DNA from: Antedon mediterranea
Lineage: Eukaryota > Animalia > Echinodermata
Direction of reading: 5' to 3'
Assembly: GCF_964355755.1 (NCBI RefSeq)
Contig: NC_092671.1
Coordinates: forward strand, 21,142,001-21,206,000
Length of the DNA stretch: 64,000 bases
Under the pieces are notes generated by a model. That model was not told the origin of the DNA and ran no database searches. It saw only the letters and a program-made list of their open reading frames with translations. A program made the position numbers and the translations under genes. Shown piece by piece: positions 60-63,046 of this stretch; positions within the stretch are counted from its first letter, which is position 1, and every line of letters starts with the position of its first letter.

Positions 60-2470
60 GAAATGTTCTTTTACCAGAATCATTATGCCATTTTGGTAAG
101 ACTAAAGTGTTTTTCGATTCGCTTCTTGTATTTATATTGTGATAATTATCAATAAAATCATAAAAATCAATTAAAGGTCATTATAAGAATATTATGGTCC
201 CATCGTTGATTATATGTTTCCAATTGAGTGATGTCATGAGATCATCAACAGGTGTTCTAATATCAGCATATAAGATAATTCTGGCAAGTCTATTTAACAA
301 TATTTGGAGTGAGTTAACCCGCGCTGATGAATAGTTGGACCAAACGGGACTACAATAATAAAAGACTGGTAAAACTAAGGCATTTGCTAAGAGCTTAAGA
401 GAAAAATTTGGAATGAAACTTCTTAATCTACGTATAACACCAATACGTTGGGAAATCTTTGAACAAAAATTCTCAATATGTTTTCCCCACGTAAAAATGT
501 ATCAAACGTGATTCCTAAATACTTAAAACTATCGACCCTATCTACAATTTTATCATTAATTAAACAAGAAATATTACAAATGTTTGTAAAATTATGTTTG
601 GAACTAAATACCATAAATTTGGTTTTCTTAACGTTAATTGTTAGTTTGTTTGTTTTAAACCACGTTGATATATTAGCAACATTTTTATCAATAATAGATT
701 GTAATTCGATAGGATTAGAGGCTGAACAAAGGAGATTAGTGTCATCAGCAAACATTGCACATTTTGAATTAGGAGTTATAATTTCTGGTAAGGAATTTAC
801 ATAAATAATAAATAGAAGTGGCCCAAGGATGGATCCTTGAGGCACACCAATAGTAACATCTTTAGGTTCAGATAATTTTGAGTTAATTTTAACAATCTGT
901 GACCTTCCAGAAAGGTATGTTGAGAACCAGTTCAGTGTAGTCCTACCTCTGATCCCATATTGTTCAAGTTTAATTAATAGAAGTTAATGGTCAACTGTGT
1001 CGAAAGCCTTTTTTAAATCAAGAAAAGTGGCAGCAGTGACTTTGCCATTGTTAAGATTATTAAGCACGTATTCAGAAACATCAATAAGTGCAGTATTAGT
1101 AGAGTGAACATTTCTAAATCCTGATTGGCATTGAGTTATAATATTGTTATATGTTAGATATTCATAAAGTTGATCGTAAACAAATCGTTCAATGATTTTT
1201 TATAATATAGGTCGGACAGAAATTTGTCTATAATTTTCTGTATTAGATCTGTCCCCATCTTTAAAAATTGGGGTAACTTTAGCAACTTTCCAGGCTGATG
1301 GAAATGTCGCTGCGGTTAATGATACATTTATAATGTGAGTAAGTGAGTGGCAGATAATAGGAGAGGCAAGTTTAAGTAACTTTAATTCAAGAATATCAAT
1401 ACCAGAAGCTTTGTTGTTTTGAAAAGCGTTTATATGATCAAAAACTACTTCTGGTGCAATCAAATCAAAAGAAAATTTACTGTTAAAAGAAGTGTCATTA
1501 GTACTCCAATAGAAGAAAAATAACAGTTAAATTTGTTAGCTATTTTAATGTCATCAGAGACAACTTCATTCTCAGTTATAAGAGAGTTAATTGATTGTTT
1601 TTTATCATCATGTATAATACTTTTAATAGTTTTGCAAATCATTTTAGGGTTTCTAACATTTTCATTAATTGCAGTAGAACAACATTTCTTTTTAAGGTGA
1701 CGATTCATGTTGTTAGCTTTATTTCTGAATTGTTTAGCTTTTGCCCAATAAACAGGGTCATTTGTTTTATGAGCTTTAGAAAAGAAGTAGTCTCGGTCTT
1801 TACTTAATATAGAGTTCTTAATACGCTTAATTTTGAATATAAATTAGTGAATGGTCACTTATTCCAATACTCCTAGTACCATAATTTGTATACTTATTTG
1901 GATTTGATACAAAAATTAAATCCCAAATTGTTTGAGTTGAGTCAGTGATTCGTGTTGGTTGATCTATTAGTTGTGATAGACCACTACGGTATGGTGAGAA
2001 AGTTTGTTAATTTTTGACATTTTTTCTTGATATCAAGGTTTAAATCACCCATAATTATCATATCATTATATGAGGATGAATAAGATTGTAATACATTATC
2101 AAGGTTTTCAAGGTACTCAGCCTTAGCACTGGGGGGCATATAAACGGTCCCAATAACAAATGGTTTATTATGAGGTAAGTGAAATTCAATCCAAAGGCTT
2201 TCCACATTGTTGGCTTCAAACAAAGAAATTTGTTTATGTGCTATCTTATCATTAACATAACACAAGATACCACCACCCTCCTTATGCTTTCTGTCATCTC
2301 TACAAATAGTAAACCCATTAATATACAGTTCATTATTTGATATATCCTTATTTAACCAGGTCTCTGTAAAACAGAGAATATCAATGTTATGTTCATGTAA
2401 TAGAACAGAAATTTGGTCTACTTTATTACGTAGACTTTGAACGTTAAGATGGGTGATCTTTAAACCCTTA
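60..2470 (-). mobile_element. Decayed CR1/L2-group non-LTR retrotransposon ORF2 (APE endonuclease + reverse transcriptase)
   Basis: Minus-strand frames give the endonuclease start GLKITHLNVQSLRNKVDQ...CFTETWL (~2465-2350), IIMGDLN (ORF 1984-2265), WKVAKVTPIFKDG...NYRQIS (1200-1463) and PQGSILGPLLF...FADD...YLG (423-845). Several stops and frameshifts. Confidence 0.93.
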
Positions 2471-2674
2471 CTTCAGAAAAAGTCAAATTTAATTGATTCA
2501 TTAAAAAATGGTAAATTAGTAGTAGCATTTTAACATTTTTTAAATAGCAAGGCAATGTGAGACAGCGTTGAAAGAGTCTAAGTCTATGATGGGTAGTTCG
2601 TCTAGTTAAAGGCTAAGCCTTAATTAAAAAAATACCCGGAAAGGCCTGATGATAGTTATATCAACACTAAGAGA

Positions 2675-5600
2675 TGTTACAGGTGTGGATCTACTAAACA
2701 TTTAGCAAACTCTACAGACTGTAACCACTGCGGTCTAAAAAGGCATTTTGCGAGTGTATGCCGTGCGCGAAATTCATCAGTTAAGAAATTAGAGTATGCG
2801 AGTACAAACTCCAGTGAAGAAAGTGATTCAGAAAATGAGGTTTTGTGTACAATGACTACCTCAGAGAAGAAATCAGTTGTGGTGTCCGTCAAAATAAACT
2901 CTATTGATATGCAACTTATAGTAGATACGGCATCTGATGTATCCTTACTATCTCTTAAATTGTTTGATAAACATTTTGCTAGAAACGAATTAGGCAAATA
3001 TGTAACACAAATTAAAAGTTACACAACACATACGATAAATACTGTAGGCTGTTTTAAAGCTAAGGTTAAATTCAATACAGAATGTGCTACAACAACACTT
3101 TATGTGGTTGAAAAGGGCAGTAGTTTAATAGGTAAAGACTTAATTCAAGCCCTTGGTATCAATATTGACGGGAGCACACTTTCGTGTTTTAAGACTACTT
3201 TTAATGATGTACAATCGCAGTTTCCATGTTTGTTTTCAGAAAGGCTAGGTAAAGTTAAAGGTTTTACACATAAGGTCAAAGTTCGTCCTGATATAAAACC
3301 TGTGCAACAAAAACTACGTAGACTTCGATTTACGGTGCAAGCGGTTCTCGATGAAGGCATAATTGAAAAAGTTGACTCTTCTGAGTGGATCTCGCCTATA
3401 CTGGTAGCGTGGAAAAAAACGATAACATCAGAATAATGTGTCGATTTACGGAAACCAAATGAAGCTATAGTGGAAGATAAATTTCCACTCCCTTCGATCG
3501 AAGAGCTATTAAGTGAGATGCAAAGGAGCAACTCATTTTTCTAAATTAGACATTAAGTTTGCTTACCACCAGCTGCCACCAGCTCGAGTTGGATTCCAAT
3601 AGTCGGGACCTTACAGCATTTATTACACATGATGGGTTTTTCGTTTTCGTACAGTTTGTTTTGGCTTATCATCGGCCCCATCTTGTTTTCAAAAGATGAT
3701 GTCAACCATCTTGTCTGGTATACCTAACATACAATACTTTATAGATGATATTATTATTTCCAGACGCGACAAAGTAGAACATGACAGGGCGTTAATGGCG
3801 GTACTTACTTGGTTGAAAGATAGGGGATGACCTTAAATGATAAATGTGAGTTTGATGTTAAATCAATGAAAGTACTTGGTCATGTAATAGATGACAAAGG
3901 GATACATCCAAGTAATGAGTTAGTGAATGGCATCGCCAAAGCAGCAACCTCTACAATCTACCGACAGCTTAAGTCATTTTTAGGCCTGGCAGGATTTTAT
4001 GCCAAATTTGTTCCCAATTTCACATCTAAAGTGAACGCTATGAGGCAGATCCTAGTAACTGAACCATTCAATTGGACTGAGGAGGCAAATTCTGCTTTTG
4101 AAAATATTAAATTGGATATTATTAACAGTTCAGGCCTTGCATTATTTGATCCGAATCTCAAAGTTGTTGTCACAACGGATGTCAGTGGATATGGCCTCGG
4201 TGCGGTACTTACGCAAATAACACGTGATGGTACACAAGTAACAGTGGCATGTGCATCTAGAACATTAACGGGTCCTGAACGCAATTATTCGGTGGGGGAA
4301 CGCAAAGTACTTGACTGTGTGTGGGCGGTCGAACAATGGCATACTTACCTGTGCGGCAGACACTTTACTCTTCGCACAGACCACCATTAGTAACTCTACT
4401 TTCTTTGAAAGGTACAGGTCGTAGACCAATGCGTATTGCGCGATGGAACGCACGTTTGCATCATTATAAATATAAGGTGGAATACAAACCGGGCGCACAA
4501 AATAAAATTGCAGACTCCCTTTCGCGATTACCAATACAAACATCCGATTCAGCTATAAATGATGGATGATGACCATGCGGTTTGTCAAATTGTTCTATCG
4601 GATGCATATAAAGCCACTACGAAAACAGAATTAGGAAATGCTACGCATAATGATGAGGGTTTACACAGCTTAAAGCGTACCTAAATTCGGGTGGCCTAAT
4701 AACAAAAAAGATATTCCAGAAAGTGTACAACCGTATCACCGAATTAAGGATGAGTTAGCTACTCATAATGGGATTATATTTAGGGGTCAGCGTATCGTTG
4801 TACCTTCAATACTTAATGCTCAGTTAGTTCAACTTGCGCATGAAAACCATCAGGGTATAGTTCGAACTAAACAGCGATTACGTGACCTTTACTGGTGGCC
4901 TAAAATGGATGTACACGTTACCGAGGCAATTAAACACTGTGTGACTTGCCAGATGTCAGACAAGTCAGCTAAAATAAGAATTGCTCCAATGCAACCAGTA
5001 TCCTTACCAGAACGCCCATGGAAAAAATGGGTATTGATTTGGTAGGACCAGATTATTCGGCTCCGGCAAGCGAGCGTTACATAATTTCTTTGATTGATTA
5101 CCGTAGTAAATGGCCCGAAGTTGCGTTTTGTTCAGACATCACTACTAAAACCCTAATTACGTTCTTAATTGAAGTTTTCAGTAGAGAAGGTTACCCTGAT
5201 GAGATAGTTTCGGATAATGGGACACAGTTGACAAGAAAGCCGAGAATTTGAAAAGTTTCTCGCTAAGCGAAATATCAAACATATATTTTCCACGGTTTAC
5301 CACCCTGAAGGGAATAGTACGATTGAATGGTTTAATCGAATTCTGAATGAAACTACCCAAACTGCGTGATAGGAAAAGCGACCACTGAGACTAATTGCAC
5401 TCAGTTTTTAGGTACATTCGGGCAACGCGTCATGCCACTACAGGCAAAACTCCTTCGGTTTTATTGCATGGACGACCTTTCAGAACTATGCTAGATATTG
5501 TAGGTGTTACTAACAACCTCCCTCAATTAAAACCTGAGGAAGTAGACAATAGGGTTAAAAGCGACAAGCACAATGCAAGGAGAGCTATGTGTAAACGTGT

Positions 5601-13285: not shown

Positions 13286-13455
13286 ACAATTAAGATGTCA
13301 CGTTTAATTTCCCTTTGTTAATTACCGATATTAGTAAACCTCCAATATATAGTATATAACAAATGAGGCTTAAACTTCAATATCACGCCAGCAAATTTGA
13401 AACATATTTGAGACACCAATTCGTACATCTACCGAGGCCAAGATACAATACTTTC

Positions 13456-15192
13456 GAAGAGCATTTTCCTCAAATTTTCACTAACAAGAGATTGAATGAC
13501 AAGCCCTGGTTTACAACTAAATTAAGAAAATTAATTTTGAAACGCCAGGTGGCTTACCGAAATGGACAGGATATCCAGTGGAAAATCTTACGTTGTAAGG
13601 TACAGCAGGAAGTCAAACGAGCGAAGGCTTCATTCTATGAAAAGTCTATTGCTACCTTGAAAGGGAACCAACCTGGAAAATGGCACCGCAGTGTCCAGAA
13701 GCTCTGTAATATGAGGAAGAAATCAAGTCGTATTCCTGGCTCTGATGTTGACCCTATAAACACCGTTGAATGCATCAATAGCCATTTTGCACTTGTATGT
13801 AATCAGCTTCCGGCTTTGAATATCAACAAGCTACCAGCCTTCCTCCCAGCAAGTGAACCACCAGTTATACATGAATGGGAAGTTCGTAAGGCTTTGACTA
13901 AAGTGAACTGTAATAAATCAAGCCACCCAACAGACTTACCAATTAAAATAATTAAGGAATTTGCTATTGAACTTGCTAACCCGCTAACTAAATTATTTAA
14001 TACGTGTCTCAATGAGGGACACTTTCCACGTCAGTGGAAAACTGCTTCTATAGTTCCAGTTCCAAAACAAAACAAGATCCGCTCTTTTGATGATCTTCGT
14101 CCAATATTATTATAGATAAATTAATTAAACTTGGAGTTAGGTCATCCATTGTTTCCATCGTCTGCAGCTTTCTGTGTGAAAGAACTCATACTACCAAACT
14201 TGGCACGCACATTTCTTCCACCAAATCAATCTCTTGTGGAGTACCACAGGGAACCAAACTGGGACCTATACTCTTTTTGGTTCTAGTAAATGATGCTGCC
14301 ATTGAAAGTTGTAGACGTTGGAAATTTGTGGATGACCTGACTCTAGGGGAAGTAACCAAATGTGGTGCTTCCTCTAACTTACAAAGTGTCCTTAATAGTG
14401 TCAGTGAGTGGTGTGCATCTAATGATGTTCTACCAAAACCAGCTAAATGCCAAGTAATTGAATTTAACTTTTTAAAGCAACGGCAGCTTAATTTAGTTTA
14501 CACTATGGATAACTTTAATCTTCCAATAGTTAGTAAGTTAAAACTGCTTGGTGTAATAATCCAAAATGACCTCAAATGGGGTTCAAATGTTAATGATATA
14601 ACATCAAGAGCCTCACGTAGACTATTTTCACTATGTATCCTGAAAAGGTCTAGTGCACCAGTCAGTGATCTGGTTACAGTATTTACATCATATATCAGAC
14701 CTGTGCTGGAATATGCCTGCCAGGTTTGGCATTCATCATTAACTGTTCAGCAATCTAATTTAATAGAAAAAATTCAAAAACGGGCTTTGCGCATAATTTT
14801 GAGCCCACATTATGTTAGCTATGAATTAGCCTTAGAGCAAGTAGGTTTGCCTTCTTTAAAGTCCCGTAGAGAACAGATTCTTCTCAAGTTTGGCAAGAGT
14901 CTTTTAGAATCTACCAAATTTAGAAATATGTTACCAGCATATAAATCTGATAGGCATTCAAGATCGTTAAGGAGCAATACTAGTTCAAAGTTGGATTCTT
15001 GCAGATGTCGCACTGAAAGATATAGGCGGTCTACTATTCCACACTTAGCACGAATCCTTTAAGTTTAATGTTTAGTTTAGATCTTCTTTGATGTATTTTA
15101 TTTCTCAGTTGATTGTAATCCAACCTTTTCAGCTCTTGCTGCTGGTTGGAATTTGATGTTTTTATACCTTAATAAATAAATAAATAAATAAA
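13456..15192 (+). mobile_element. 5'-truncated, internally deleted CR1/L2-group LINE with (AAAT)n tail and 4-bp TTTC duplication
   Basis: ORFs 13363-14115 (KPWFT...WKTASIVPVPK...DLRPI) and 14277-15062 (KFVDD, KLLGV, RPVLEYACQVW); PQGTKLGP at ~14245; (AAAT)n at 15171-15192; TTTC at 13452-13455 and 15193-15196. Confidence 0.92.
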
Positions 15193-16629: not shown

Positions 16630-18507
16630 AATGATGGTACAGTATTATTTGGATCAAGATTAGAAGTGGGTACTTGTCTCATCTTGACCCTTATTACAAT
16701 ACAATATAAAATAAAAAATAACAAAAAATTGAATTAAATGCAAATACAATTAGGCCTGTGTAATATATGTAATAAATTAATCATGGTAAAGGGACAAATA
16801 AAATGTGTTAATATGTTTCTTAAAAAAATGTAACAAAACAGATTGTTTTATATAATTTTCTAGTCTATTTCACAAATGCGGACCTGTGTAGCCTACTTCT
16901 TAAGTTGTAATCATGGGTTCCATCAACTGAATTGAATTGAATAGAGATTACAAGGTCAGATCCCAAGGCCATTACGTCATACGTTCACGGGCACATCAAC
17001 GTAATTTAAAGGTTCATATATCCATGGAGAAATAAGTCGACTATGAAACTAGATTCAAATTTGAAAGAAAATGTCAACAAAACAAGGAATGCGAAGAAAT
17101 GGTATGTATTGTCCTCTAAAATCTGAAATTGGTATTGATATCCTGAAAAATATATAATTATAGGTTACGTTATATACCTCTTTATTCAAATCTTTACCCA
17201 TGATCACGTCATCAAAATGAATGCAATAATATTGTTTATTTATAGAATTTTACAAAAATGATCATAGTTACGATACGTGTTTTATATTAGATGTATGATT
17301 GTATGTATATCCTTTATCGAAATTTGTATCTCTTTGTACCTGTTGTCTGGCGTGTTCTGTATAGGCCTAATATGGTGTATTGGTGTCCAAACTGACAGGC
17401 ATCCGCTTCTTTTGGTAAATTATAAATTGTGTCAATAGCCTAAATGTCGATACATTGCCCTGATATCTTACTATAATAATTAATAACAAATTACTATAAC
17501 AAAATACTCCGATCGAGATGAAACTTGGGTCTCACGGTCTTCAAACTTGGTGAGTGGATGAAGCCCGGCATAAGAAAGAAGGTCATGGTCAAATCTTAAC
17601 ATTTTCAAATTGCTCCAATCGAGTTTTATTTTCATAAACAATTAGGTCCTATTATCTAGTAAAAGTCAATTTTCTAGAAATAAAATAAAATACTGCTGTT
17701 CATGTATTCCGTTCCGTTTCTAACTATAATAATGCAACGGAATAGATTAAAACATTATTTATATAAGTTTAATATTACTTTCTTAACTAAGATTAATGGA
17801 CGGAAAAGACGGCATGGTACTAAAATGTTGGTGTTAAAAAATCCAATTACAGGCTTGAGTATAATGTCCACCGTTTTGCCTTGTGAAAAAGAGGTGTTTA
17901 CTAATCCATTCGTGGCATTGTAACTTGAAGTCCTGTAGCAATTGAAATGAGAATTATTAGAATAAAACGATAGATATTAAAGGAAACATGATTTGAACAT
18001 GACGATAAACATTGACTGTATTTTAGACGACACTTATTTTCATCCAAAAACAACAGAAAATCGAAAGAGAGCAAATTTAGCACAGTACTAATGAATACAT
18101 ATTTGTACCGTAGGAACAAGCAATTGTGTAAATCGAATTTTATAGGTGCTCTAGACCAATTACGTATTGTTTATATTTAATTTTATGTAATTAATTAATA
18201 ATCAAAGTATCAGCATTTTATTATTAATTGCCCATCATAGTTTCAAATATGAATTATAAACACGGGAACAAAACTAAACTGAATCACTGTGACTATACTG
18301 TTACCTTTATCATGTCATGTTTAAAAAAAATTAAAATAAAAGATAAAAATATAAATCAACAATTTTAAGTAAAAGAGAAATGTAATCGCAATTCCGGAAA
18401 AATAATAGTATTTTAAGCCGCATTTGTAACAATGTTTAATTTCAATTTAGGCCTAAGTATAATTTTTTGAAAATACAGATTAAGAGAAGTTGCAACTACT
18501 GTATTAC

Positions 18508-19259
18508 CTATTTTCGTGACAACCAATTTGTAGAATCCCAGTAGTTTAGATTGCTTCGAAACAAGTAATTCCTTTTACCTAATGATAATTAATAATAATA
18601 ATAAATATATAAACACAATTAAAATTTTGTTGAAACTTATATGTTTTTATCCGGTGCACATTGCATTAAATTGTATATGTTGACTTACCAATATAATAAC
18701 ACAACTGATGACAAGCATGGGACATTGCCAAACATTCTGTTAAAATACAGACAATTATGTTTAATGCATAATGGGTAATTTGTTATGGGTGTATTTGTTG
18801 TGCACATAAATAATACTGTGTACAAAATGACAAAAGCGATCCGACATTACAATATAGGTATATTTTAAAAATATAATAAGAAACCGGTTGAACATTTAAA
18901 TATGATTTTGACGTAATATTAAGCATTATTCTTATTAAATCTTATTTCAACGAAAATACAATTGTTGTATTTCTTTTTCGTTCCAAGAGTGTACATACGT
19001 TTATATAAATGGAATAAAATATTAAATAATGGATAACTATATTTCATAACCACTGAATAGATAGAATTAACTAAAGATAATGACTGCATAATTTTGCATA
19101 TTTTTGATAGTAATGTATTTTTACAAAGTGAACCTTACCTTGTGTACAACACCTACTGTTGCAAAGGTCCGTCTTACATCTGGGTTCGCATGCATTTATT
19201 GATACAGCTATAAAACACAATAGCAATGAAATAAACAACGAATGTTTTATTACAAACAT
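18508..19259 (-). CDS. Three-exon secreted cysteine-rich peptide precursor (79 aa): signal peptide, 8-Cys peptide, GKR amidation site, C-terminal tail
   Basis: Exons 19259-19139, 18736-18689 and 18578-18508. Donors GTAAGG and GTAAGT; acceptors TTTTAACAG and CATTAG; both introns phase 1. Translation: MFVIKHSLFISLLLCFIAVSINA CEPRCKTDLCNSRCCTQECLAMSHACHQLCYYI GKR NYLFRSNLNYWDSTNWLSRK*. Confidence 0.8.
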
Positions 19260-20629
19260 TTTGATTTCTATACCGATCTTACTCTAACCAAATCTCAACC
19301 TGATCTGATATTCTCTATGCGCTCTCGGTTTCCACTAAAATAGACATAAGTTTGCGCATGTACGTATTGTCACCCGATTCTGCAGCTATCACTAGTTAGA
19401 GTATAACTGACTATCGAAAGTCATCTAAAAACGAATCTGGTTGTATTGAATCGAGTTTGAACAATACCACGAAAGTACCAGTATATCTGCATATCAAGCA
19501 GATGGGTTTGAGTTCGAATCTCGATTGTGGCGACCTTTTCTCATTGATGGTATCATTGGAAAGGGAAAGTAAAACTGATCATTTCTATTCCATTACCCCA
19601 TTTTGAAAAATACATAGCTACATTACATAGTTATTCAGCAATAAAACAAGTCACGTGACCAATAAAGGTCAAAAGGACAACATTCAATTTCACCAATATG
19701 TTATTATCTTATTATTGAATAAATACGGTACTTAGCTATAGGACTACGTCACAACATCAAAAACAAAATGGTACTGATCATGGTATAATTTTTTAGTGTT
19801 CAAAGTCATGTGTATAAAAAAAATTGCAAGAAAATGTTTTTTTGATGTATTAAAACAAAATAAAAAAATGTATATCAAAAGTTTACTCAAATACATATTT
19901 ATATTATATTTACTGTTGTCTTTTTTTTTTTTTTTTTTGGTCAGTTTGACTCGACTATATGTCAAACCGGGTGTCACATAATGAACAAGCAAGCAGAGTA
20001 CCAATGTTAATTTTGGTCTACAAGCAACTGCCTTTCTCTTTGAACGTCAGATTTAAAAAAAGTGCAGTGAAATTATATTAACATATTTTAGTAATAAAAT
20101 TAAAAAATTAATTAGTTTTCCTCAAATTAACACGAAACAAAAAAGATCACGAAACAAAAAAGATCAGTGTTTGTTCTTTACAAACTAATACCATCGATAT
20201 TGTGAAGAAACGAATTACGATCTGTTTATAAAGTTAACAAGCGCCTTTAATTTTCACTTATGGTTTGGTTAATTATCGCAATATAAACGCTAACCATAAT
20301 AAGTTATTATTAAGAGTGGCAAAGTAGAATAATTAATCAAACTACTAATTGTTTGTGGTAACTTAACGTTCTTGTTGTTTAAAAGGGAAACCGTTATCCG
20401 CGTCGAACAAAACAATTATTACGTACGGCATTTTAACTTTCCAGTTATATTCAAATTAGTCGGAGAAAAACAGCTGTATGAAACGATTTCAATTATTCAT
20501 TTTCCTTTTTATAAATTTTAAAATTTGTATTTTAATTGTCTTACATTTACGGCATTTCTCAGTTATATTATTAAATATGCAGGTGGAGGGTCAATACTCC
20601 CTAGGAAAGGGTATTGTACCTGATATGAC

Positions 20630-21265
20630 AATGACAGCCAGGGTTGTTCCAATATATACAACTTATAAATAATAAAATCTATTTTCAAGCTACAGACATA
20701 TCTCCGTGCTTCCCATCCTATCTAAAATCCTAGAGCGTATTGTATAATAACTAGATGGTACGCGAGCGATATTTTAAGATGGTATATTCATTGCTTGTGA
20801 AACTGGGTGAGTGGGGAACACAGGCTTCAAGTCATAGTGATTAGGTTCGCTTTTGTGTCCCATGCCAGCTCACTCAGTTAGTTCTATTGTTTTTTTTTTG
20901 TATGTCGTGTTCTTCATGTATTTTATATTTGGCAATAAAAGAATAAGAATAAGAATACCACGATCGGGAATAGCCCCTATTTGGGGCAAATCGTTGTACC
21001 TAAATTCGTTTTAATTGTCAATAACTAATTATCTAACTCAATTTAATTATTAAACAGGGTTACATCAGGTGGTTAAAATCAGTACCGAAAGTATGAACCA
21101 ACTTTATATACCATCGAGTAAACATTCTAAAAGTAACGCGCGATTTACCGAATTTCGCCCTTACGTAAATTTATATTTAGATATAGGCTATATAACTATG
21201 TACAGAATTAAAGGTAACATTATTCACCCTTCACAATTTGGTTTTCCAAAACAAAGCACCACATA
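20630..21265 (+). mobile_element. CR1-like LINE RT fragment interrupted by a short Helitron
   Basis: ARVVPIY...YRHISVLPILSKILERIV before 20750, and NIIHPSQFGFPKQST after 21182. Confidence 0.7.
20751..21181 (-). mobile_element. Short (431 bp) non-autonomous Helitron, same family as 44738-47282
   Basis: Minus strand A|TC...CTAG|T termini. 20958-21181 matches 47058-47282; CTAGATGGTACGCGAGCG matches the family hairpin. Confidence 0.75.
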
Positions 21266-21849: not shown

Positions 21850-24800
21850 AATATATTTTTTTAGGCGATATTAATGTAGATGTTTAAAACCCAACTACAA
21901 TGACAGAAAAATATCTAACGGACTAATACTGTTTAAATTTAGTTACAAATGAATCTTCCACTTTAATTTACCATATTTATTCAAATATTTGTAATTCTTT
22001 TATTCATACTAGCACTTTAGCATGTGATATTTCTGATCATTTCCCTGTTTATTCGATATTTGAAAATAATTACGTTTCCACCAAAGAAGATAATTTTTGT
22101 TCGCGACTATTCCAAATTCAACTCAGACGCTTTTCTTAATGTTTAATCAAATGTTGATTGGTTTGATGTCTATTCATGTTCTGATGTTGATGAATCATAT
22201 AATTTCTTTTATTCTAAGTTTATTCAACTGTGTGATTTGCATGCCCTTGTTGTAAGTCTTACACAAATTAAAAGGAAAACACTTTGGATAACCAAAGCAA
22301 TAAACAAAATCTATAAGAACGAAACATACATTATATTCTAATGTTATAAAATCAAATTTCGAATCAACTTTATTTTCTGATTATAAACGATACAGAAATA
22401 ATCTAACCAAAATATATGGCGCGCCAAGCTGTCATTTATTCGGAAATAAAGATATCTTAGTTTAAAACTAAGATATCTTAGTTTAAAACTAAGATATCTC
22501 TATTAATAGAGATATCTCTATTAAAAACTAAGATATCTCTATTAAAAACTAAGATATCTCTATTTAAAACTAAGATATCTTAGTTTTTAATAGAGATATC
22601 TCTATCAATAGAGATATCTTTATTAATAGAGATATCTCTATTAAAAACTAAGATATCTTAGTTTTAAATAGAGATATCTTAGTTTTTAATAGAGATATCT
22701 TAGTTTTTAATAGAGATATCTCTATTTAAAACTAAGATATCTCTATTAATAAACTAAGATATCTTAGTTTTTAAAAGAGATATCTCTATTAACAGATATA
22801 TCTCTATTAATAGAGATATCTCTATTTAAAACTAAGATATCTCTATTTAAAACTAAGATATCTCTATTAATAGAGATATCTTGGTTTTGTTTCCGGTTCA
22901 GTGTTTTATGGGTAATACGATTTTCCATCTGTGACTGAGGTAAGGTCAATTTCCTATAATTGTTAACATCGCAGTCCCAGTTGTAATATAGAGGCTATAA
23001 TGAAATAAAATGGAACAGAGGCAGAAACAGAATGTTTCAGAAAAAATGATGAGGCTTATAATGAGCACATAAACACTTTCCATAAAGATAAAAACCATTG
23101 TATTTGATCACTATTTAATTATGGATGATAGAAGTTTCTATGTACAATTTTGAATAAGTTTTCGTGAAATAGCTTGGTGGATAATGCCGATCATTTTGAA
23201 TGATAAGACAAAATTGAAATACCTCTAGTTTTCTAGAAATTTCACTCTTATTTATCTGGTTCGCGGTCAATGCCTAGAAAATTGTTTATAAAATACGTGT
23301 TATTCCAGGTACAGTCAGTGGGGAGGAGTAGAAGAGCTGTCTTATTTTATACAATATACTATTAATCGGAAAGGGAAAAAATACTATTTCGGAGAGAGCG
23401 CACCACATATTTATTAATTATTTATTTCGTTTTCTTTCAGTAGGGTAGCCCTCTCAGAAATAATATAAAAACTGCCCTTCCGATCCCGAGGGGCCCTACG
23501 ACATGCACATTTCGTTTTCTTATAGTAGTGTAGCCCTCTCAATCAGTAATAATATAACAAAGTTTATGATGTCGATGCGTGTCCCTTTTCACTTCTTTGC
23601 TAGTTTTTTAACCTTCAAAGGCTCGGTATAACTATAAGAAGAGTTCACATCCCTTAGATCTGCCTTTTAATGATGCATGTTAAATGCATGCAACGTTTAT
23701 TACTTTTTTACAGTATTACAGCTCGAAACTCCACGAAATTAATACAGTACAATGTCGGCTCTCAACAATTTAATTATTGTATTTTTCAGTTTTGTATGTT
23801 TTGTAGCACTGTAGCTTATACCTGTTTGACCTAGAAATCAACAACTATAAACACCTTGGTGGGATGTCCCTAATGGGTCATTAATCTTCCATTCTCAATG
23901 ACACACTTCCACCACATTCACAACTATACCATTCCCTACATACTTTGCAACAGGAAACAAAACTAAGATACCTCTATTAATAGAGATATCTCTATTAATA
24001 GAGATATCTTAGTTTTTAATAGAGATATCTCTAGTAATAGAGATATCTCTATTAACTAAGATATCTCTATTAAAAACTAAGATATCTCTATTTAAAACTA
24101 AGATATCTTAGTTTTTAATAGAGATATCTCTGTTAATAGAGATATCTCTATTAATAGAGATATCTCTATATTTAAAACTAAGATATCTCTATTTAAAACT
24201 AAGATATCTCTATTAAAAACTAAGATATCTCTATTGCTTGAATAAATGACAGCTTGGCGCGCCATAAAAATACTCAGAACAGCTAAATTTTTTAAACCAT
24301 TTAACTTTAATGACAAAAACGATTCCAAGAAAACATGGCAGATAATAAATAACCTACTTGGAAGGAGAACATCACCAACCAAACTACCACACAAAATCAC
24401 AGTCTCTAAACCGGACGGTGATGTTAATTTTATGGATGGTAACGCAATTGTTAATGAATTTAATCATTTATTTACTAATATCGGTCCTGCTGTGTTACCT
24501 AAAGATATTCGCAATGATGACTTAATTAATTTTTCTTCTTTTCTTGTTCAACCATATATTAATTCACTGTATTTAGAACCTATTACATCAGTTGAGGTTT
24601 TTAATTTATTTTCTTCTCTTGACAAGAAACAAGCTTCAGGTTATGATAATAATAAAATTAATTTCAATTTCAACCCCATTTATATAGGCCCTATTTGCCT
24701 CTATGCTATTATATTAAATATCTCATTTCAACAATCAATATTTCCTTCTTCCTTTTAAATTGCACGGGTGATTCCATTATTTAAAAAAGGAAGAAAGGAC

Positions 24801-25900
24801 TATTTACTAATTATAGACCCATATCTATTCGTCTAGTTTTAAGTAAAGTTTTAGAACAATTATTTAATGAAAGGTTCGTTAACTATTTTGAATGGTACGA
24901 TTTATTTTATAAACATCAGTATGGTTTTAGAAAATAATTAATCTCGTTAATAATCTCCAATACAATATTGATCATAAAGAATCTTCTCTTTATTGATTTC
25001 AGAAATTCTTTAGATACAATTGATCACTATTATATTACGTTATGGCATTCGAGGCAATACACTTAAATGGATTTCTAATCATCTTTGTAATAGGAGACAA
25101 CTAATTATATCAAGTCATTATACTTCAGATACATTAGATATAACATGTGGTGTTCCCCAGGGATCTGTGCTGGGACCCACCCTTTTTTAATTTACATTAT
25201 TGATTTACCAAATTCCTCTGATTTTTTTTATTTTCGACTATTTGCTGACGACACTAATTTAATCTACTCTTTTCTTGGAAGCATCCTTGATTTATTTGAT
25301 ATTAATGCTCAGGTAAAACAAGTTACTGGGTGGTGTATTGCAAATAAGCTCACAATAAATTCGGAAAAAACTAATTATATGATTTTTCAGTCCAAAAATA
25401 AAGTTATTAGAATTAAAAGTTATTTAACTATTATTAACAATGTTTTAATTAAAGAAAGTTCATTTATTAATTTTGAAATTAAGTTTGAAAAACTCTTATC
25501 TTAAAAACTCCACATTGATGATATTTGTAAAAGAGTTAGAAAAAAGCTGGATTTCTGTCTACCTGTTTTTATTTTCCCCAAAAATGATTGTCAGATGTAT
25601 TTCTTTTTTTTTTCATTTTAGAGATCATACACTTGAATTATATGTTCTTAAATTTGATATTTTTGACTATCACAACCGAACACTACATCTATTACTGATT
25701 ATTTCAAACTATTGATCATTCGTACAATACCAGATTAAATAAAACTGTTCATTTTGCCTTACCCAAACCTCGTACTAATTTAGGTCAAGATAGGATTTTA
25801 TTTTACGGGGCCAAATTATGGCACGAACTCTCTCTCTTTTAACAAGAGATACCCGTTTAGAAAAAAATTGTTAAAAGAAATTTATTTAATAAATGTATTT
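21850..25900 (+). mobile_element. Decayed CR1-group LINE ORF2, interrupted by the IS3EU-like element
   Basis: ISDHFPV near 22030; YKRYRNNLTK|ILRTAK rejoined across the insert; KKTWQIINNLL; NYRPIS; QYGFRK; CGVPQGSVLGP; LFADDT. Confidence 0.88.
22415..24266. mobile_element. Non-autonomous DNA transposon, IS3EU-like (TATGG...CCATA termini, 6-bp TSD)
   Basis: Perfect 27-bp TIR TATGGCGCGCCAAGCTGTCATTTATTC; TSD AAAATA at 22409-22414 and 24267-24272. Excision restores the host LINE frame. Sub-terminal arrays of palindromic AGATATCT units at ~22449-22885 and ~23960-24236. Confidence 0.8.
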
Positions 25901-29668: not shown

Positions 29669-30184
29669 TCCAACACCATCTTTCTCACTCTCGCATTGAT
29701 TACTGCAGTGTGTGGAGGATCACTATTTGAATCCAATATAAACATCCAAAAATACAAAATAAAGCTTCTACATGCTTATCCACTTACGCGAAACACTATA
29801 CGGCACTATCAAAGAGGGCGTTATATAAGCATGGACAGATAAATAATTTGTGTAAACAGCGTTTGCCAACCGGTATGTTTGGTCTACTGGTAAAGGTTTA
29901 ACCTGTTGCATTGGAGCCCTCGGTTCGAGGTCTAGCAAGAACATGTTTTTTTAATAGTTGAGAGAGAGATTATTTAGAGGTTTTGTTTAGCATATTTAGA
30001 AAGTAGATCTTTCTAATAGAAAAATAATTAAGGTAATGAATTATTCATGATTTCTGCCTTAACCTCATAGGAAAAAAATGATGCGCGCCGGACTACCATA
30101 ACTTCCATCTTACCAGAACCCCAACAAGGTCCAATACACTCGAAGTTCTACAAAAGGTTGTTGTTTTTGTTCCTTTTCCTCATC

Positions 30185-30968
30185 TTACAGCTTAATCTTT
30201 CTGAATCTCACGATATAACTAAACGACTTGAAAGTTGTCTCTCTAAAATATCATCCTGGCTATCATCCAACATGCTCTTGCTTAGCAATTCTAAAACCGA
30301 ATTTATCATTTTCTCCACCAAAAACATACGTTCAAAATTCAATATTCCCTCGTTTTCTTTTAATTCCTGTAAAATTTTTCCATCACCTTTTGTTAAAAAT
30401 CTTGGGGTTTATTTTGATGGATTATTATCCTTCAACAAACATAAGTCATGTTACAAAAACTACTAACTTTCATTTACGTAACAATGCTTGCTTCAAAGCG
30501 TACTGCCTCTACATTAATAAATGCCTCTGTCACTCGCCTTGATTATTGCAACTCTCTTTTTTTTGCCCTACCGAAATCTTTAATGAATCGACTTCAACGT
30601 CTCCAGAACACTGCTGCTGTCCACGTATTCTAACTCTTACTAGAAGATCCTCACACATATCTCCTATTATCTGCCATGGGCTACCGTATAAAATATAAGA
30701 TCCTTTTACTAACATTTAAAACGCTACTTCTTAAACAACCTACTTATCTCCTTGATCTTCTTCCCTCCTACACCCCTCTTGCTTGTCTTCGTTTGGCTGA
30801 CCAAAACCTACTACTTGTTCCTAGAATTAACACCAATTAACACCTTATGGACAAAGGTCTTTTATGTTCACTGCTGCTTCTCATTAGAATTATCTCCCTC
30901 GTCATTTTACTAAATCAACTTCTATTGCTATTTAAAAAAAAGAACTTAAAACGCATCTTTTTAACATA
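30185..30968 (+). mobile_element. L2-clade LINE 3' fragment
   Basis: LESCLSKISSWL...SKTEFI...VKNLGVYFD; VTRLDYCNSL...LQRLQNTAA; HISPI; LLVPR. A further L2-like tail piece lies at ~31340-31590. Confidence 0.85.
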
Positions 30969-34722: not shown

Positions 34723-35077
34723 GCTGGCCACAGAGCAATTATATAGAGAGAGTTACGGCATTAGAGAGCTTTCGCTATCTCGATCGGGAACGAGAACCAG
34801 CATTAATTACCGGTTCTCGATCTCGTACTCGTTTTAAGAACAAATGTAGTTTCGTATCCTCGATCACCGATAATATGAAAACTATAGGTGGCAGCAGAGT
34901 TCTGGTACGCTTCAAAGCATACGATATAAACAAAAACAAACTACTGTAGGCCTACTGTATAGTAGTACAGTAGTAGTACTGTGTACACTCGATCGTAACT
35001 AATCGGCACCAGGTCCTTGGGTACTATTAAAGTAACGTGAAAATGGCCGAAAATTTGGTAGATTTTGCAACAATTAT

Positions 35078-35425
35078 TTGGAAGGTCATTACTGCTTGTA
35101 TGGAGATCCAGCGTATCCTATACGCCCATGGCTGATTTCACCGTTCAGACAAGGAGCTGCTAACTTAGATCAGCGTCAGCAGGAGTTCAATGCTGCCATG
35201 TCTTCTGTACGTGTTTGTGTGGAGTGGGTATTTGGAAAGATGCTACAGAACTGGGCTTTTGTGGACTTCAAGAAAGACCTTAAGGTGTTTTTACAACCAG
35301 TGGCAAAATACTATATTGTGGCTGGTTTGCTAACCAATTGTCATACTTGTTTGTATGGGTCAGTAACTGGATCATTTTTTGAAGTCGAACCCCCAACACT
35401 CGAGGAGTATTTGGGCAACGCTTAA
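35078..35425 (+). pseudogene. Harbinger DDE transposase (DDE_Tnp_4/HARBI1-like), C-terminal part only
   Basis: LYGDPAYP...FNAAMSSVRVCVEWVFG...LLTNCHTCLYG; the N-terminal part is missing. Confidence 0.88.
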
Positions 35426-40323: not shown

Positions 40324-40655
40324 GCCTATTTTCCACTAGGCGAATTTGTTCGCGCGAATCGAAAGCGTCATGCTATGCGCATGCGTATTCAAGTTTCTGT
40401 CTGTCATACTCCCTTCTACGACGAATTCTAGTTCCTTTGATTTTTCACTTCAGCGAAATTTACTAGTTTCTACTTTTTGCGAAGCGAAAACTTCTCAACC
40501 AATCACAGAGCTGCTCGAGAAATGAGTTGTCAACAAATCGTCTGGCGGCCCGGCGGATTTCTCAAATTGTTCATACGACCTCGCGCTTTTTTTTTATTAC
40601 AGTATACTATCCGATCTGATTCAAGTGATAGGCCTATTTTTTGAGTCATATTAAT

Positions 40656-41868
40656 ATGGAGTGTAGCGAAATTCTCATGACAATTGAAGATGGTGCTGTA
40701 AAAGATCTAGAAGAGACAGAATTAGGCCTAGGCCAAATACTAATAGGCCAAGGCTATTACGAGTGTGATGAGCAGCAGACTAGGCCTAGGCCTAGGCCTA
40801 GACCTACCGGCACTGGAGCAACAGAAGCAGGCGTCGTAGTCGTCGGGACAGAACCCCAGCCACAGGAGGCATGCAGTCCACCACCAGCAGAGGAGAAAAG
40901 CTTAGGCCTAAGCCTAGGTCTGTTTAACAAAGAACTCTTCATAGAAGAAGTCAGAAAACACAAATGTTTGTGGGAAGTTAACTCTGAAAAGTATAAAAAC
41001 CGTGCAATTAAAGTTAACGCCTGGAAAACAATAGGAGAAATTTTCAATAGAGAAGGTAAAAACAAACTCTAAGTAAACCTAGGCCTAGAGCCTACTAGGC
41101 TACTAGGACTAGGTTAGACTAGGCCTACTACTTGCTAGGCTAGCTATGCTAGGCCTAGGCCCCTATATCTTAATATTAAATTAGTATGCCATGCCTAGAT
41201 AGGTCTAATCTACTAGCCTAGCTAGGCCTAGGCTACTCTATCTAGCAAGCCTACTGGCAGGCAGGCCTATTCGAACATTCCATTTTCAATTTTGGATAAA
41301 TTACTCGCGTGTAGGGCTACAAAAATTAAAGTTAAAGTGTTAATTCGGTATAATTTGTTATATTTTTTTAGTTGAATTCCTTCAGCGACAACTCAAAAAC
41401 CTGAAAGACACACTAAAGAAGTGCCTAAACAAGAGAAATTCAATTATACGGTCTGGGGCAGCCGCTACGTCTTTACCGCAATGCAAGTATTTTGAACAGA
41501 TGAGATTTCTGCATGAAAAAACAGCCAACTAGCCAACTGTCAGCAACTGTCAAGCTACAAGTAGTGGTACTACTGCAAGGCATGCTTCTAATGAAGAGAA
41601 TATTGATCCCTGTGTGTCGACGATACCACAAGTACCGATAAAACGAAAAAAGCAACATGACGAACTTGATACAATGCTAATAAACCAACTGGAAACGACA
41701 TCGGAAGCCATTAATTCTTTGATATCGGGTTCGAATCAACAGGAAGATGAAGTCGCTCTATATTTCAGGAGCCTTATCCCAATTGTTTCAGCATTTGACC
41801 GCCGAAGACAACGACTCGCTATGGTCAAAATAAGCCAATTGCTTTTTGATATAGAATTCGAGGAGTAA
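40656..41868 (+). pseudogene. Harbinger-associated MADF (Myb/SANT-like) + BESS-like protein, two exons, one premature stop
   Basis: Exons 40656-41055 and 41372-41868 (GT-AG, phase 1): FIEEVRKHKCLWE...YKN...AWKTIG...LKNLKD...RSG...KYFEQMRFL; TAG at 41530-41532; C-terminal DEVALYFRSL...MVKISQLLF. Confidence 0.8.
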
Positions 41869-42390
41869 AACAGACATATTTAACATAAGAACTGTTAATA
41901 TGTTACCATTTACTAATAACATTTAATGCGTCTTTGCAAATAATTATATACTGTAAACGAAAACTGTTATTTACATTTCAATTGAATCGGATCGGATAGT
42001 ATACTGTAATTAAAACAAATAATGATTTGTTTAGTGTTATTTATATAGTGCAAATAAGTATTATACTGTATACGTCTACAAAAACCGTTATTTACATTTT
42101 AATTAAATCGGATTGATGTAACAGTATTGATTTCCTTCATATTAAATATTTTCATTTACTTATTTTTAAATTTCGTTATACTGTAAACCGACTGTATTTC
42201 TTTAAGTTCGGTTAACTAATCCCCATTGCTATTGTACAGCGGCAGCAGCATCCTTGGAATAGTTGTTCGAACCTATCCGACGTATCGATTGTAGACCACC
42301 GTGCAAATTAATATCGGTATCTTGCCTCCATTCACTGGCGTTACCCCTGTTGGCCCATCATTGTCAACAAATTGTAATGGGCAATATTTA

Positions 42391-43046
42391 TTACCATTTT
42401 GATGCATTTTGTTTCATTAGGAAATTGTGAAGAACGACAATAGACTGCGTTATGAGCACAACCTTCCGTACTTTGGCAATAATTGGCCTCCTCAGAATGC
42501 GAAATCTGCTTGCAGCTATACCAAAGGTGTTTTCGATGACTCTTCGTGCTCTCGACAGCCTATAGTTAAACACTCGTTGATCAGTTTCTAAATGTGAAGA
42601 AGGATAGGGTTTCATCATATGCTTCTTTAATCCAAAAGCATCGTCTCCAACAAACACACAGGGCAATGTTTTGTCTGAATTTGGGAGCATCTCTCGAGCT
42701 GGAATGTTGAGCAAGTTATTCTCTATAGCATGTCCCAAATAACTACATCCATATACACTACCATCACTCTGACGTCCACTGTCTCCAATGTCTACTAAAG
42801 TAAATTTATAGTTCGCATCACAAACCGCCATAAGTACAATACTAAAGGTTTTCTTGTAATTAAAATATGATGAGCCTGAATTATTAGGTGCTTGCATCAC
42901 TACATGCTTCCCATCTATAGACCCAACACAGTTGGGAAAATTCCATGACTCGAAAAATTCATTAGAAATATCTTTCCACTCTTCCTCTGTTGATGGATGT
43001 TTGATGAAGCCTTTCTCTTTTAGGACTGTCCATATAGCACCACACG
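42391..43046 (-). pseudogene. Harbinger DDE transposase (HARBI1/ALP1-like), N-terminally truncated
   Basis: WNFPNCVGSIDGKH...YFNYKKTFSIVLMA...FVGDDAF...FNYRLSRARRVIENTFG...LHNF. Confidence 0.92.
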
Positions 43047-44737
43047 TCCACCCGATTCTGCTACTGTCCACAGGTGCTATCTGTAAAACTATAGCAAGTT
43101 ATACACGTTGCTGTCTGCTATAAATGCTGTACTTTTAAAACACGGTACACTGTCTGTAGCACAGTGTGTGTTGACAATTTACAATGATGTACAACCATAG
43201 TGTAATATAATGTTGCGTTGTTGAGGTACTAATGAAGACTCTTACTCGCTTGACTGTCGTAACACATATATTGTTTATTCAGTATAATACTTCAGTACAA
43301 TATACAACTATAAGTATAGATAAGGAACGGAGGATCAATGATGCTGTCGGTGAGGTGTGAAGTGTGTAGGTCTGCTTCTGAAGAAGTGGCTGTGAGGTGT
43401 AGATGTTCTTCTGAAGAAGTGGCTGTGAGGTGTGTGCTCCGTGAAGTGGCTGTAAGGTGTGTGCTCCGTGAAGTGGCTGTAAGGTGTGTCTGGGCTCTTC
43501 TGGAACTTGGGAGTATATTGGCCCTCGGTTCATTTACATATGTCACTACGTAATCTTAGAGGTTACTGATTGGTCCTAAGTTGGTCCAGGGGTGTTTAAG
43601 TGGGAATGATTGATCTTATCTGGGGAGGTTACAATGATGAATTGGCCCTGTCGAATCTCTGCTAAAAACTGTCAATATCTAATTGTTTTACGATGGGAAC
43701 AGTCCCAAAGTTATTCTTTAGGGATTCTATTATAAACTAAATGGTCTTTAAAACATCTGGACAAACTCTCCTCTGGACTTTCTGGGTCAAGTTTGTGAAC
43801 CTATTTGAATTCTGATACAAAGGTCAATTTTTTAAATATAACAGTATATCGTTATATTACATCCCTCTGTTTCCTTGTTTTTTTTAAAAAATCTATTTAA
43901 AATATAAAAATGGTTATAATAGTGGCATGCAAATTTAAAGTTATATAAAAGAAAAAAAAACAGTATTATACATAATTATAAGCAAAAGTTGAGTTAGCCA
44001 AAACCATTGACTCTGAAGTGTAACCTTATCACTTTCACTCTCTCTCTTCTCTCTCTTAAAAAAATTAAAATTAAAAATGAATTTGGTATAAAATTCGCGT
44101 AAATCAAACATAAATCAGTTAAAAATAAAATTACAAAACTTAAAAATAGTATGTTACATTGAACATACATCAAATCGTGCGACAACTCATCGCGTTCTAA
44201 TGGTCTTCAAACATAAATCATCAAATTAAAACATAAAACTCAAGAAACTGTGGCTGATTAGCCTAAAATCAAAATATCAAACTTAATCACTTAAAACTTT
44301 AAAGAAACAAATGTGTGTGTCCCGTTGACACAAACTTATCCACAATATATCGTTATCGTCACAACTTTATCGATTTAAGCATTTATATTCACAGGTAATT
44401 ACGATTTCAATCAATCGACAAATTCGACTTTTGTACTCAATGTCAAAAAAATTACAATTAAAAGTACTAAGAAAATCTCCTGTTATTGTATATCAATTAA
44501 TTAATGCTTGAGATTAACGACTCAAAGGTTAAACAAAATATTTGTTACAAAATGCTTGTCGTTCTTTTCAATATCTCAATATATCGATCATCAAAATTCA
44601 AAATTAATCTTTATCAAAAAACTCGTTACAAAATCAATACTTAATCATAATTTCAATTCTCTTTTAACTGAAATCACATCATTACTAAACAAATCTCATC
44701 AAAAATACGTAGACTATGCTATCATTAATTTAGCAAA

Positions 44738-58000: not shown

Positions 58001-58683
58001 TAGATCAGCGAGAGAGAGAGAGATAGATAGATCAGCGAGAGAGAGATAGATAGATCAGCGAGAGAGAGAGATAGATCAGCGAGAGAGATAGATAGATCAG
58101 CGAGAGAGAGATAGATCAGCGAGAGGGAGATAGATAGATCAGCGAGAGAGAGATAGATCAACGAGAGAGAGATAGAACAGTGAGAGAGAGATAGATCAGC
58201 GAGAGAGAGATAGATCAGCGAGAGAGAGATAGATCAGCGATAGAGAGAGAGATAGATCAGCGAGAGAGAGAGAGATAGATCAGCGAGAGAGAGATAGATC
58301 AGCGAGAGAGAGAGAGAGATATATCAGCGAGAGAGAGAGAGAGATAGATCAGCGAGAGAGAGATAGATCAGCGAGAGAGAGATAGATCAACGAGAGAGAG
58401 ATAGATCAGCGATAGAGAGATAGATAGATCAGCGAGAGAGAGATAGATCAGCGAGAGAGAGAGATAGATAGATCAGCGAGAGAGAGATAGATAGATCAGC
58501 GAGAGAGAGATAGATCAGCGAGAGAGAGATAGATCAGCAAGAGAGAGAGATAGATCAACGAGAGAGATAGATCAGCGAGAGAGAGAGATAGATAGATCAG
58601 CGAGAGAGAGATAGATCAGCGACAGAGAGATAGATAGATCAGCGAGAGAGAGATAGATAGATCAGCGAGAGAGAGATAGATCG
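55024..58683 (+). repeat. ~19-bp minisatellite (GA)nTAGATCAGC, 3.7 kb
   Basis: Continuous array of GAGAGAGAGATAGATCAGC with variable GA and GATA copy number. Confidence 0.98.
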
Positions 58684-63042: not shown

Positions 63043-63046
63043 TTAA

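Follow-up and report, generated by a model that had tools for sequence, protein, structure and literature searches.

A spliced four-exon gene in Antedon mediterranea encoding a predicted amidated peptide with eight cysteines

Gene, transcript and surroundings

The window, that is the whole stretch of 64,000 nucleotides analysed, carries on its minus strand a small spliced gene for a predicted peptide precursor. The 79-codon reading frame is assembled from three coding pieces of 121, 48 and 71 nt, and its stop codon ends the third exon (Table 1). Exon coordinates, GT-AG sites and translation were recovered as given in a preliminary description of this DNA. However, that description had claimed a gene of three exons, and a transcript contig from sequencing run X1 shows four, the last being non-coding and lying behind a third intron.

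Table 1. Features of the gene and of the surrounding DNA. Positions are counted from the first letter of the window; contig positions refer to the X1 contig.
Feature	Position	Strand	Remarks
5' UTR part of exon 1	19260..19399	-	at least 140 nt; contig positions 1-140; true start may lie further upstream
Exon 1, coding part	19139..19259	-	23-residue leader and mature residues 24-40 with five Cys
Intron 1	18737..19138	-	402 nt, GT-AG, phase 1; joint in X1 contig
Exon 2	18689..18736	-	48 nt, symmetric phase 1-1; residues 41-56 with three Cys; contig piece 262-313
Intron 2	18579..18688	-	110 nt, GT-AG, phase 1; splits codon of putative amide donor Gly57; adjacent contig pieces
Exon 3	18508..18578	-	71 nt; rest of Gly57, Lys-Arg, 20-residue tail, stop at exon end; contig piece 314-381
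Intron 3	17933..18507	-	575 nt, GT-AG; begins right behind stop codon; joint in X1 contig
Exon 4, 3' untranslated	17143..17932	-	at least 790 nt; contig piece 382-1170
High-copy repeat	19400..19680	+	tRNA-like head 19466-19532; directly upstream of transcript end
Broken LINE endonuclease and reverse transcriptase pieces	181-2472	-	
Ty3/gypsy-type element	2624-5251		protease, RNase H and integrase pieces
Broken LINE endonuclease/reverse transcriptase pieces	13360-15062	+	
LINE-like frames	24246-25504, 30071-30466		
Second DDE fragment	35036-35425		
Harbinger/PIF-type element	40632-43098		MADF gene facing DDE_Tnp_4 transposase on other strand

The X1 contig (1170 nt, depth 42.9, minus strand; mapped on 17000-21000) joins all three predicted coding exons and shows no mismatch to the window. 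Its record positions are contiguous (1-261, 262-313, 314-381 and 382-1170, with 0 other letters), and the four exon lengths add up to its full 1170 nt. Mapping on a narrower stretch also gave contiguous pieces (19395-19139, 18736-18685, 18574-18507 and 17931-17860), again with 0 other letters. The joints 19139/18736 and 18508/17932 are spliced in the contig, as GT-AG skips of 402 and 575 nt, respectively. The joint 18689/18578 was read from the adjacent pieces 18736-18685 and 18574-18507, which agree with the predicted joint within a 4-nt ambiguity; the row of this joint had itself been removed by the repeat filter. None of the transcript's joints was found in the DNA runs X2 and X3 mapped on 17000-21000. 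X1 cover was absent inside intron 2 and almost absent from introns 1 and 3, where two matches of 21-23 nt to a second X1 contig were taken as chance.

None of the five runs is on record as RNA; X1 is presumed to be RNA and was accepted as such for its spliced contig. It contains 17% of the window's words and comes from another study than the four runs with full window content. The transcript support is one contig of one run, and contigs drop rare isoforms. Because this contig joins the exons, the gene model is settled: the gene is real, transcribed and spliced, with four exons. Therefore the argument that a Gly codon built across the exon 2/3 junction is unlikely by chance, put forward in the preliminary description, is no longer needed. 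By itself it was weak, since a phase-1 G/GT junction readily yields Gly and read-through of intron 1 gives Gly-Lys as well.

No other ATG frame of the transcript, on either strand, is as long as that of 79 residues. When 20000 copies of the transcript were simulated with a first-order Markov model, an ORF of at least 79 residues arose in 860 of them; 27 of these had a leader too, and 0 had eight cysteines in addition. The coding signal thus exceeds chance (0/20000), under criteria of length, leader and cysteine number that were set post hoc, after the gene had been seen. Across 19399-17143, in the pieces listed, 0 differences separate the window from the X1 contig of the other study. Such identity is unusual for a wild marine invertebrate and may be a sign of a clonal organism, or of one with low diversity.

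The main ATG has an A at -3, and the ORF list of the transcript contains a 14-codon upstream ORF in the 5' UTR that stops ahead of it. Exon 2 encodes most of the predicted C-terminal helix. Skipping of this 16-codon exon would keep the frame and still form Gly-Lys-Arg, leading to a predicted 17-residue amidated peptide with five cysteines; the X1 contig holds the full form alone, exon 2 included. Intron 3 is in phase 0 behind the stop, and the frame stays open for 32 further codons into exon 4 (17932-17834, minus strand; two Cys and two Trp). This may be a coincidence, reflect read-through of the stop, or be what is left of a tail that was once longer. Exon 4 contains AATAAA at 17240 and 17186, as well as a repeat fragment with raised DNA depth near 17536-17669.

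The repeat directly upstream of the transcript matches the Rfam tRNA model with 32.8 bits and reaches a DNA depth of 24333, versus 300. ARAGORN detected no tRNA gene in it, and it is probably a tRNA-derived SINE. Lying in the orientation opposite to the gene, it may supply or adjoin the putative promoter, or it may merely break the contig. An Inr-like TCAGTT is present on the minus strand at 19410-19405, at the border between repeat and transcript.

The preliminary description had also found no other host gene in the window. This agrees with the Pfam search of 159 of the 209 listed ORFs and of exon 1, in which the convincing matches were all to transposon domains (at E<=0.001 in 10 of the 159 ORFs, and at 0.0017 in one more, a protease-like ORF). 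It is less firm for genes made of short exons, others of which are possible, RNA having been mapped on 17000-21000 only. The MADF gene of the Harbinger element is split over two frames (40632-41072 and 41344-41532), and the break is probably an intron. The Harbinger transposase has its named relatives mostly among cnidarians (best 67%), and the best named relatives of the window's LINE are from a crinoid (50%) and amphioxus (43-44%). In a quick tree of 53 rows (the window LINE, the top 50 and two other named matches, of 120 listed), the crinoid element adjoins the clade of the window with 89 SH-aLRT, a weak support.

The window is rich in repeats, with a G+C content of 27-46% in 2-kb bins. Positions 55029-63046 are occupied by 184 copies of a purine-rich 19-bp satellite and, behind them, by an 87-bp satellite whose array flips orientation near 60585-60606. 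AT-rich arrays of 18-21 bp lie at 22445-22888 and 23961-24235. Outside the satellites, in 1-55000, the palindrome TAGGCCTA leads all other 8-mers by a wide margin, with 60 occurrences over the two strands where 3.65 are expected, an excess of about 16-fold; no explanation for this enrichment was found in the literature searched.

Precursor, predicted peptide and search for relatives

The reading of the precursor as a hydrophobic leader, an eight-cysteine peptide, Gly-Lys-Arg and a tail is supported by the transcript contig and by sequence analysis. The leader was judged by hydropathy (peak of 3.06 over residues 9-19) and by the -3/-1 rule. Signal cleavage is predicted after Ala23, cleavage after Ser20 being possible. 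Cysteines are found at positions 15 (in the leader), 24, 28, 33, 37, 38, 42, 49 and 53, so that the mature stretch of 33 residues (24-56) contains eight, with the spacing C-3-C-4-C-3-CC-3-C-6-C-3-C. Gly57-Lys58-Arg59 lies in the transcript-supported frame, three residues past the last cysteine, and the only other basic pair in the precursor is the terminal Arg78-Lys79. The features of an amidated prepropeptide are thus present: a spliced and expressed gene, an N-terminal hydrophobic leader, and Gly plus a dibasic site at the mature end.

Given the established pathways, processing by signal peptidase, a convertase, carboxypeptidase E and PAM is very likely. Signal peptidase would cut after Ala23, the convertase would cut after Lys58-Arg59, carboxypeptidase E would trim the basic residues, and PAM would turn Gly57 into Ile-amide, leaving a peptide that ends in Tyr-Tyr-Ile-amide. 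With the amide and four disulfides that we infer for the 33-residue peptide, its calculated monoisotopic mass is 3815.51 Da, or 4113.68 Da if cut after Ser20. The predicted mature peptide (24-56) has three Lys/Arg, three Asp/Glu and two His, with a pI of 6.9 and a net charge of zero. The aromatic-rich tail of 20 residues ends in Arg-Lys; trimming would leave 18 of them as a Trp/Tyr-rich peptide of 2292.06 Da (two Trp, two Tyr and one Phe), a composition unlike that of an acidic spacer. The tail may be either a spacer or a second released peptide, a possibility absent from the preliminary description.

The spacing can be read as four C-x3-C motifs. Of the eight cysteines, the last four fall at helical angles of 0, 40, 20 and 60 degrees, i.e. 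on one helical face, and the first four at 0, 40, 180 and 220 degrees, on two faces. The half with the last four cysteines is also richer in helix formers (mean penalty of 0.44 vs 0.69), and 72 of 5000 shuffles reached its hydrophobic moment, a result due in part to Cys itself being scored as hydrophobic. A bond between adjacent cysteines is uncommon, and a plain ladder hairpin would need one. Alternatives are a stack of two mini-hairpins, or a single long helix with an N-terminal arm wrapped around it. In the fold proposed here, the N-terminal half would be stapled to the C-terminal helix, with Tyr-Tyr-Ile-amide left free for target contact.

Copy number was estimated from DNA depth. The coding exons have the depth of one 2708-nt contig (300.3 in X2 and 19.9 in X3, at >=85% likeness), and no second contig covered them in X2 or X3 (>=85%) or in X1 (>=80%). 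No second copy of the gene was detected within the window. These results exclude recent duplicates specifically, and X2 and X3 are one sample, which may be the source of the assembly.

Databases were queried with exon 1 or its read-through ORF. Since the leader makes up 23 of the 40 exon-1 residues, more than half of the query, close relatives are those that such searches could detect. A word-index search of 5.8 billion proteins for lengths of 34-109 gave no candidate, and nothing with three 5-mers in common with exon 1. A phmmer search against 1.84 billion representatives returned a single match, P0121, which was dismissed as a translated tandem repeat. Exon 1 had 0 matches to PDB sequences at E<=10 and 0 to Pfam at E<=1. 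The best ESM Atlas scores (0.77, 0.76 and 0.76) were all at chance level; two of these neighbours, at 0.77 and 0.76, are venom peptides. Among viral contigs, 0 of 23 candidates matched, and the one match among 560 metagenome contigs was dismissed as a hydrophobic stretch of a bacterial membrane protein. By contrast, the transposase fragment of the same window is present in the protein collection (P0020, 100%), so that the gene itself seems to be without a protein record.

The exact cysteine spacing was not found in the published literature searched, where coverage is thin for subscription papers and figures. Short motifs of the peptide were absent from the supplements of PMC9793003 and PMC8557429, as was CYYI from PMC7737342, and no 5-mer is common to the peptide and the precursors of the PMC9793003 supplement, PCNP7 and PCNP18 included. 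The framework had been called unrecognised, which holds for the loop lengths, unreported in the literature searched; the order C-C-C-CC-C-C-C is already in print. Judged on sequence, the cysteine order is known, the spacing is unreported in that literature, and the precursor fits none of the families tested.

Candidate roles of the peptide

Of the roles considered, the most likely for the peptide is that of an endogenous signalling ligand, i.e. a toxin-like neuropeptide or hormone of the animal itself, a reading to which we give about even confidence. These weightings rest on analogy. The mature peptide would act on a cell-surface receptor or an ion channel, a target class guessed from layout and charge. 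An endogenous ligand is favoured because of the precursor layout, the neutral charge and the lack of a close paralog; venom and antimicrobial peptides usually come from recent multi-copy families. It is also supported because the layout matches those of echinoderm orexin precursors and crinoid PCNP7, and because eight-cysteine amidated neuropeptides exist (CCWamide/agatoxin-like). The long 3' UTR and the upstream ORF fit a regulated mRNA, though weakly.

Other observations weaken the ligand reading. Hormones are usually conserved across a clade, so that the orphan status of the gene counts against it, in searches that were weak and used exon 1 only. Eight cysteines in 33 residues are denser than in most neuropeptides. 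Moreover, cone snails, terebrids and a centipede have venom peptides with the same cysteine order, two ESM Atlas neighbours (at chance-level scores) were venom peptides, and an ascidian has neutral amidated cysteine-rich peptides that are weakly antibacterial. The toxin-like look in itself leaves the role undecided, because toxin-like cysteine-rich peptides of Nematostella turned out to be neuronal, as reported in bioRxiv 10.1101/2020.05.28.121442.

It is possible, but rather unlikely, that the processed peptide is instead directed outward, as a venom or defence toxin blocking a receptor or ion channel in predators or prey. The cysteine order in common with conotoxin framework XIII, teretoxins and SLPTX17 would fit this role, as would the high cysteine density and the absence of detectable relatives, expected for a fast-evolving lineage-specific gene. 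Disulfide-stapled helical folds are known in acrorhagin I and B-IV, and the mostly cnidarian relatives of the window's Harbinger transposase could be read in the same sense. However, the precursor lacks the N-terminal propeptide that typifies conotoxins and the toxin precursors of sea anemones. A close paralog was absent from the window, X1, X2 and X3, exon 1 matched no Pfam family at E<=1, and the crinoid and amphioxus relatives of the window's LINE give no pointer to a venomous host.

A role in innate immunity or surface defence, directed at microbes as in the amidated cysteine-rich peptides of ascidians, is improbable. In its favour, turgencin A has the same first loops C-3-C-4-C and the same C-3-C-3-amide end, and its eight-residue third loop is also found here once the CC pair is disregarded. 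The St-CRPs are likewise amidated and neutral, with weak antibacterial activity (PMC13208793). Yet the net charge is zero, against a pI of 9.24 for turgencin A; eight cysteines with an adjacent pair stand against six evenly spaced ones, and no residue similarity is visible by eye. The gene is also single-copy and its product lacks the C-x-C motif of defensins. Of the neuropeptide-, toxin- and defensin-like options offered in the preliminary description, the defensin-like one is accordingly the least supported (three Lys/Arg vs three Asp/Glu, pI of 6.9, no C-x-C).

Another secreted role, whether as a structural or metal-binding peptide, an enzyme inhibitor or a water-borne pheromone, is very improbable, as is a different processing: some small disulfide-rich helical peptides of other organisms do act as pheromones or protease inhibitors, the processing is a prediction and expression is seen in one contig of one run, but Gly-Lys-Arg near the last cysteine and the C-terminal basic pair fit the regulated secretory pathway.

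Going beyond the signalling-ligand reading, we tentatively consider, with more doubt than confidence, that the peptide might be the first representative of a neuropeptide or toxin scaffold not yet described, in which four C-x3-C in 30 residues would form the most compact doubling of a helical hairpin. It would be co-released with the 18-residue Trp/Tyr-rich peptide and act on a receptor without known ligand.

The gene is supported by a transcript, and its product is absent from both large protein collections (exon-1 queries); it is an example of the small spliced peptide genes that escape annotation. A predicted amidated peptide of 33 residues and four disulfides, with an unreported spacing, can be easily synthesised and tested. 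The gain would be a new signalling family, whose orphan receptor could then be sought, or else a stable scaffold new to channel pharmacology. For the present the finding carries limited weight, as it concerns an orphan gene of one species, orphan cysteine-rich peptides being common in marine invertebrates.

Comparison with known systems

In CS-alpha-beta defensins, a helical C-x3-C is paired to a strand C-x-C. The spacing found here contains no C-x-C, which sets the peptide apart from defensins of the mytilin/myticin type. In alpha-hairpinin/CS-alpha-alpha peptides and stapled helical hairpins, C-x3-C motifs staple two helices together with a ladder connectivity; the comparison made here is one of cysteine pattern, the peptide having four C-x3-C motifs.

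Several other families were considered from the accessible parts of the sources. Like insulin/relaxin, the peptide has CC-x3-C, but this is followed by x6 instead of x8, with no C-x11-C pair and no internal dibasic site. It differs from eclosion hormone-type peptides in having eight cysteines in 33 residues versus six in a longer peptide, and exon 1 has no Pfam match. No match was found to ASYY, CLCCY, CP3-r or the echinoderm np18, np21, np22 and np23 in the passages available (including those of PMC5627052 and PMC7737342), the spacing being different for np18 and ASYY. The sea anemone frameworks in the available parts of PMC11952004 and PMC13608440 also differ.

As far as the sources could be consulted, the order C-C-C-CC-C-C-C is that of conotoxin framework XIII (G superfamily de13a, 32 residues; PMC4278219, PMC7024426), teretoxins (PMC4494067) and the centipede SLPTX17 (PMC4379518). 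The comparison is one of cysteine order. Unlike these toxins, the peptide has no venom-gland context, and exon 1 has no Pfam or sequence match.

Turgencin A, from the ascidian Synoicum turgens, is a cationic amidated peptide of 36 residues with the spacing C-3-C-4-C-8-C-2-C-3-C (available part of PMC7024374). The two peptides resemble each other in length, amide, C-3-C-4-C start, C-3-C-3-amide end and helix-loop-helix tendency. However, our peptide is neutral overall and differs by an additional CC pair and a loop of six residues, and it falls outside the turgencins, which in that source require six non-adjacent cysteines, a cationic charge and the motifs CXMAC and KKXGG.

The ambulacrarian orexin-type precursors, as described in the accessible parts of PMC4772807 and PMC9793003, are 92-161 residues long, with six cysteines including C-x-C and a long free C-terminal arm. 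They have in common with our precursor a signal peptide, a cysteine-rich amidated peptide (about 36 residues in theirs), a dibasic site and a tail; the spacing is unrelated to the six-cysteine orexin pattern.

The CCWamide/agatoxin-like peptide is a toxin-looking neuropeptide, amidated, with eight conserved cysteines and a short precursor (available part of PMC8557429). The likeness lies in the eight cysteines and the amide signal, compared by count and not by spacing. In that precursor a propeptide comes first, the mature part lies wholly in the last exon and the amide is aromatic, whereas our peptide comes next to the leader, is encoded across exons 1-2, has Ile as its last residue and is followed by a tail.

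Finally, two crinoid precursors, themselves only predicted, offer an analogy in layout. In the available part of PMC9793003, PCNP7 has C-3-C-9-C-3-C-4-GKR in three species, and the first half of PCNP18 reads, in our own interpretation, C-4-C-7-C-3-C-3-G-RKR. These precursors have four cysteines per peptide, no adjacent CC and other loops, and the PCNP7 tail is longer and acidic. As in our precursor, a cysteine-rich peptide with C-x3-C begins almost directly after the signal peptide and is followed by Gly, basic residues and a tail, and hydrophobic or aromatic residues precede the predicted amide.
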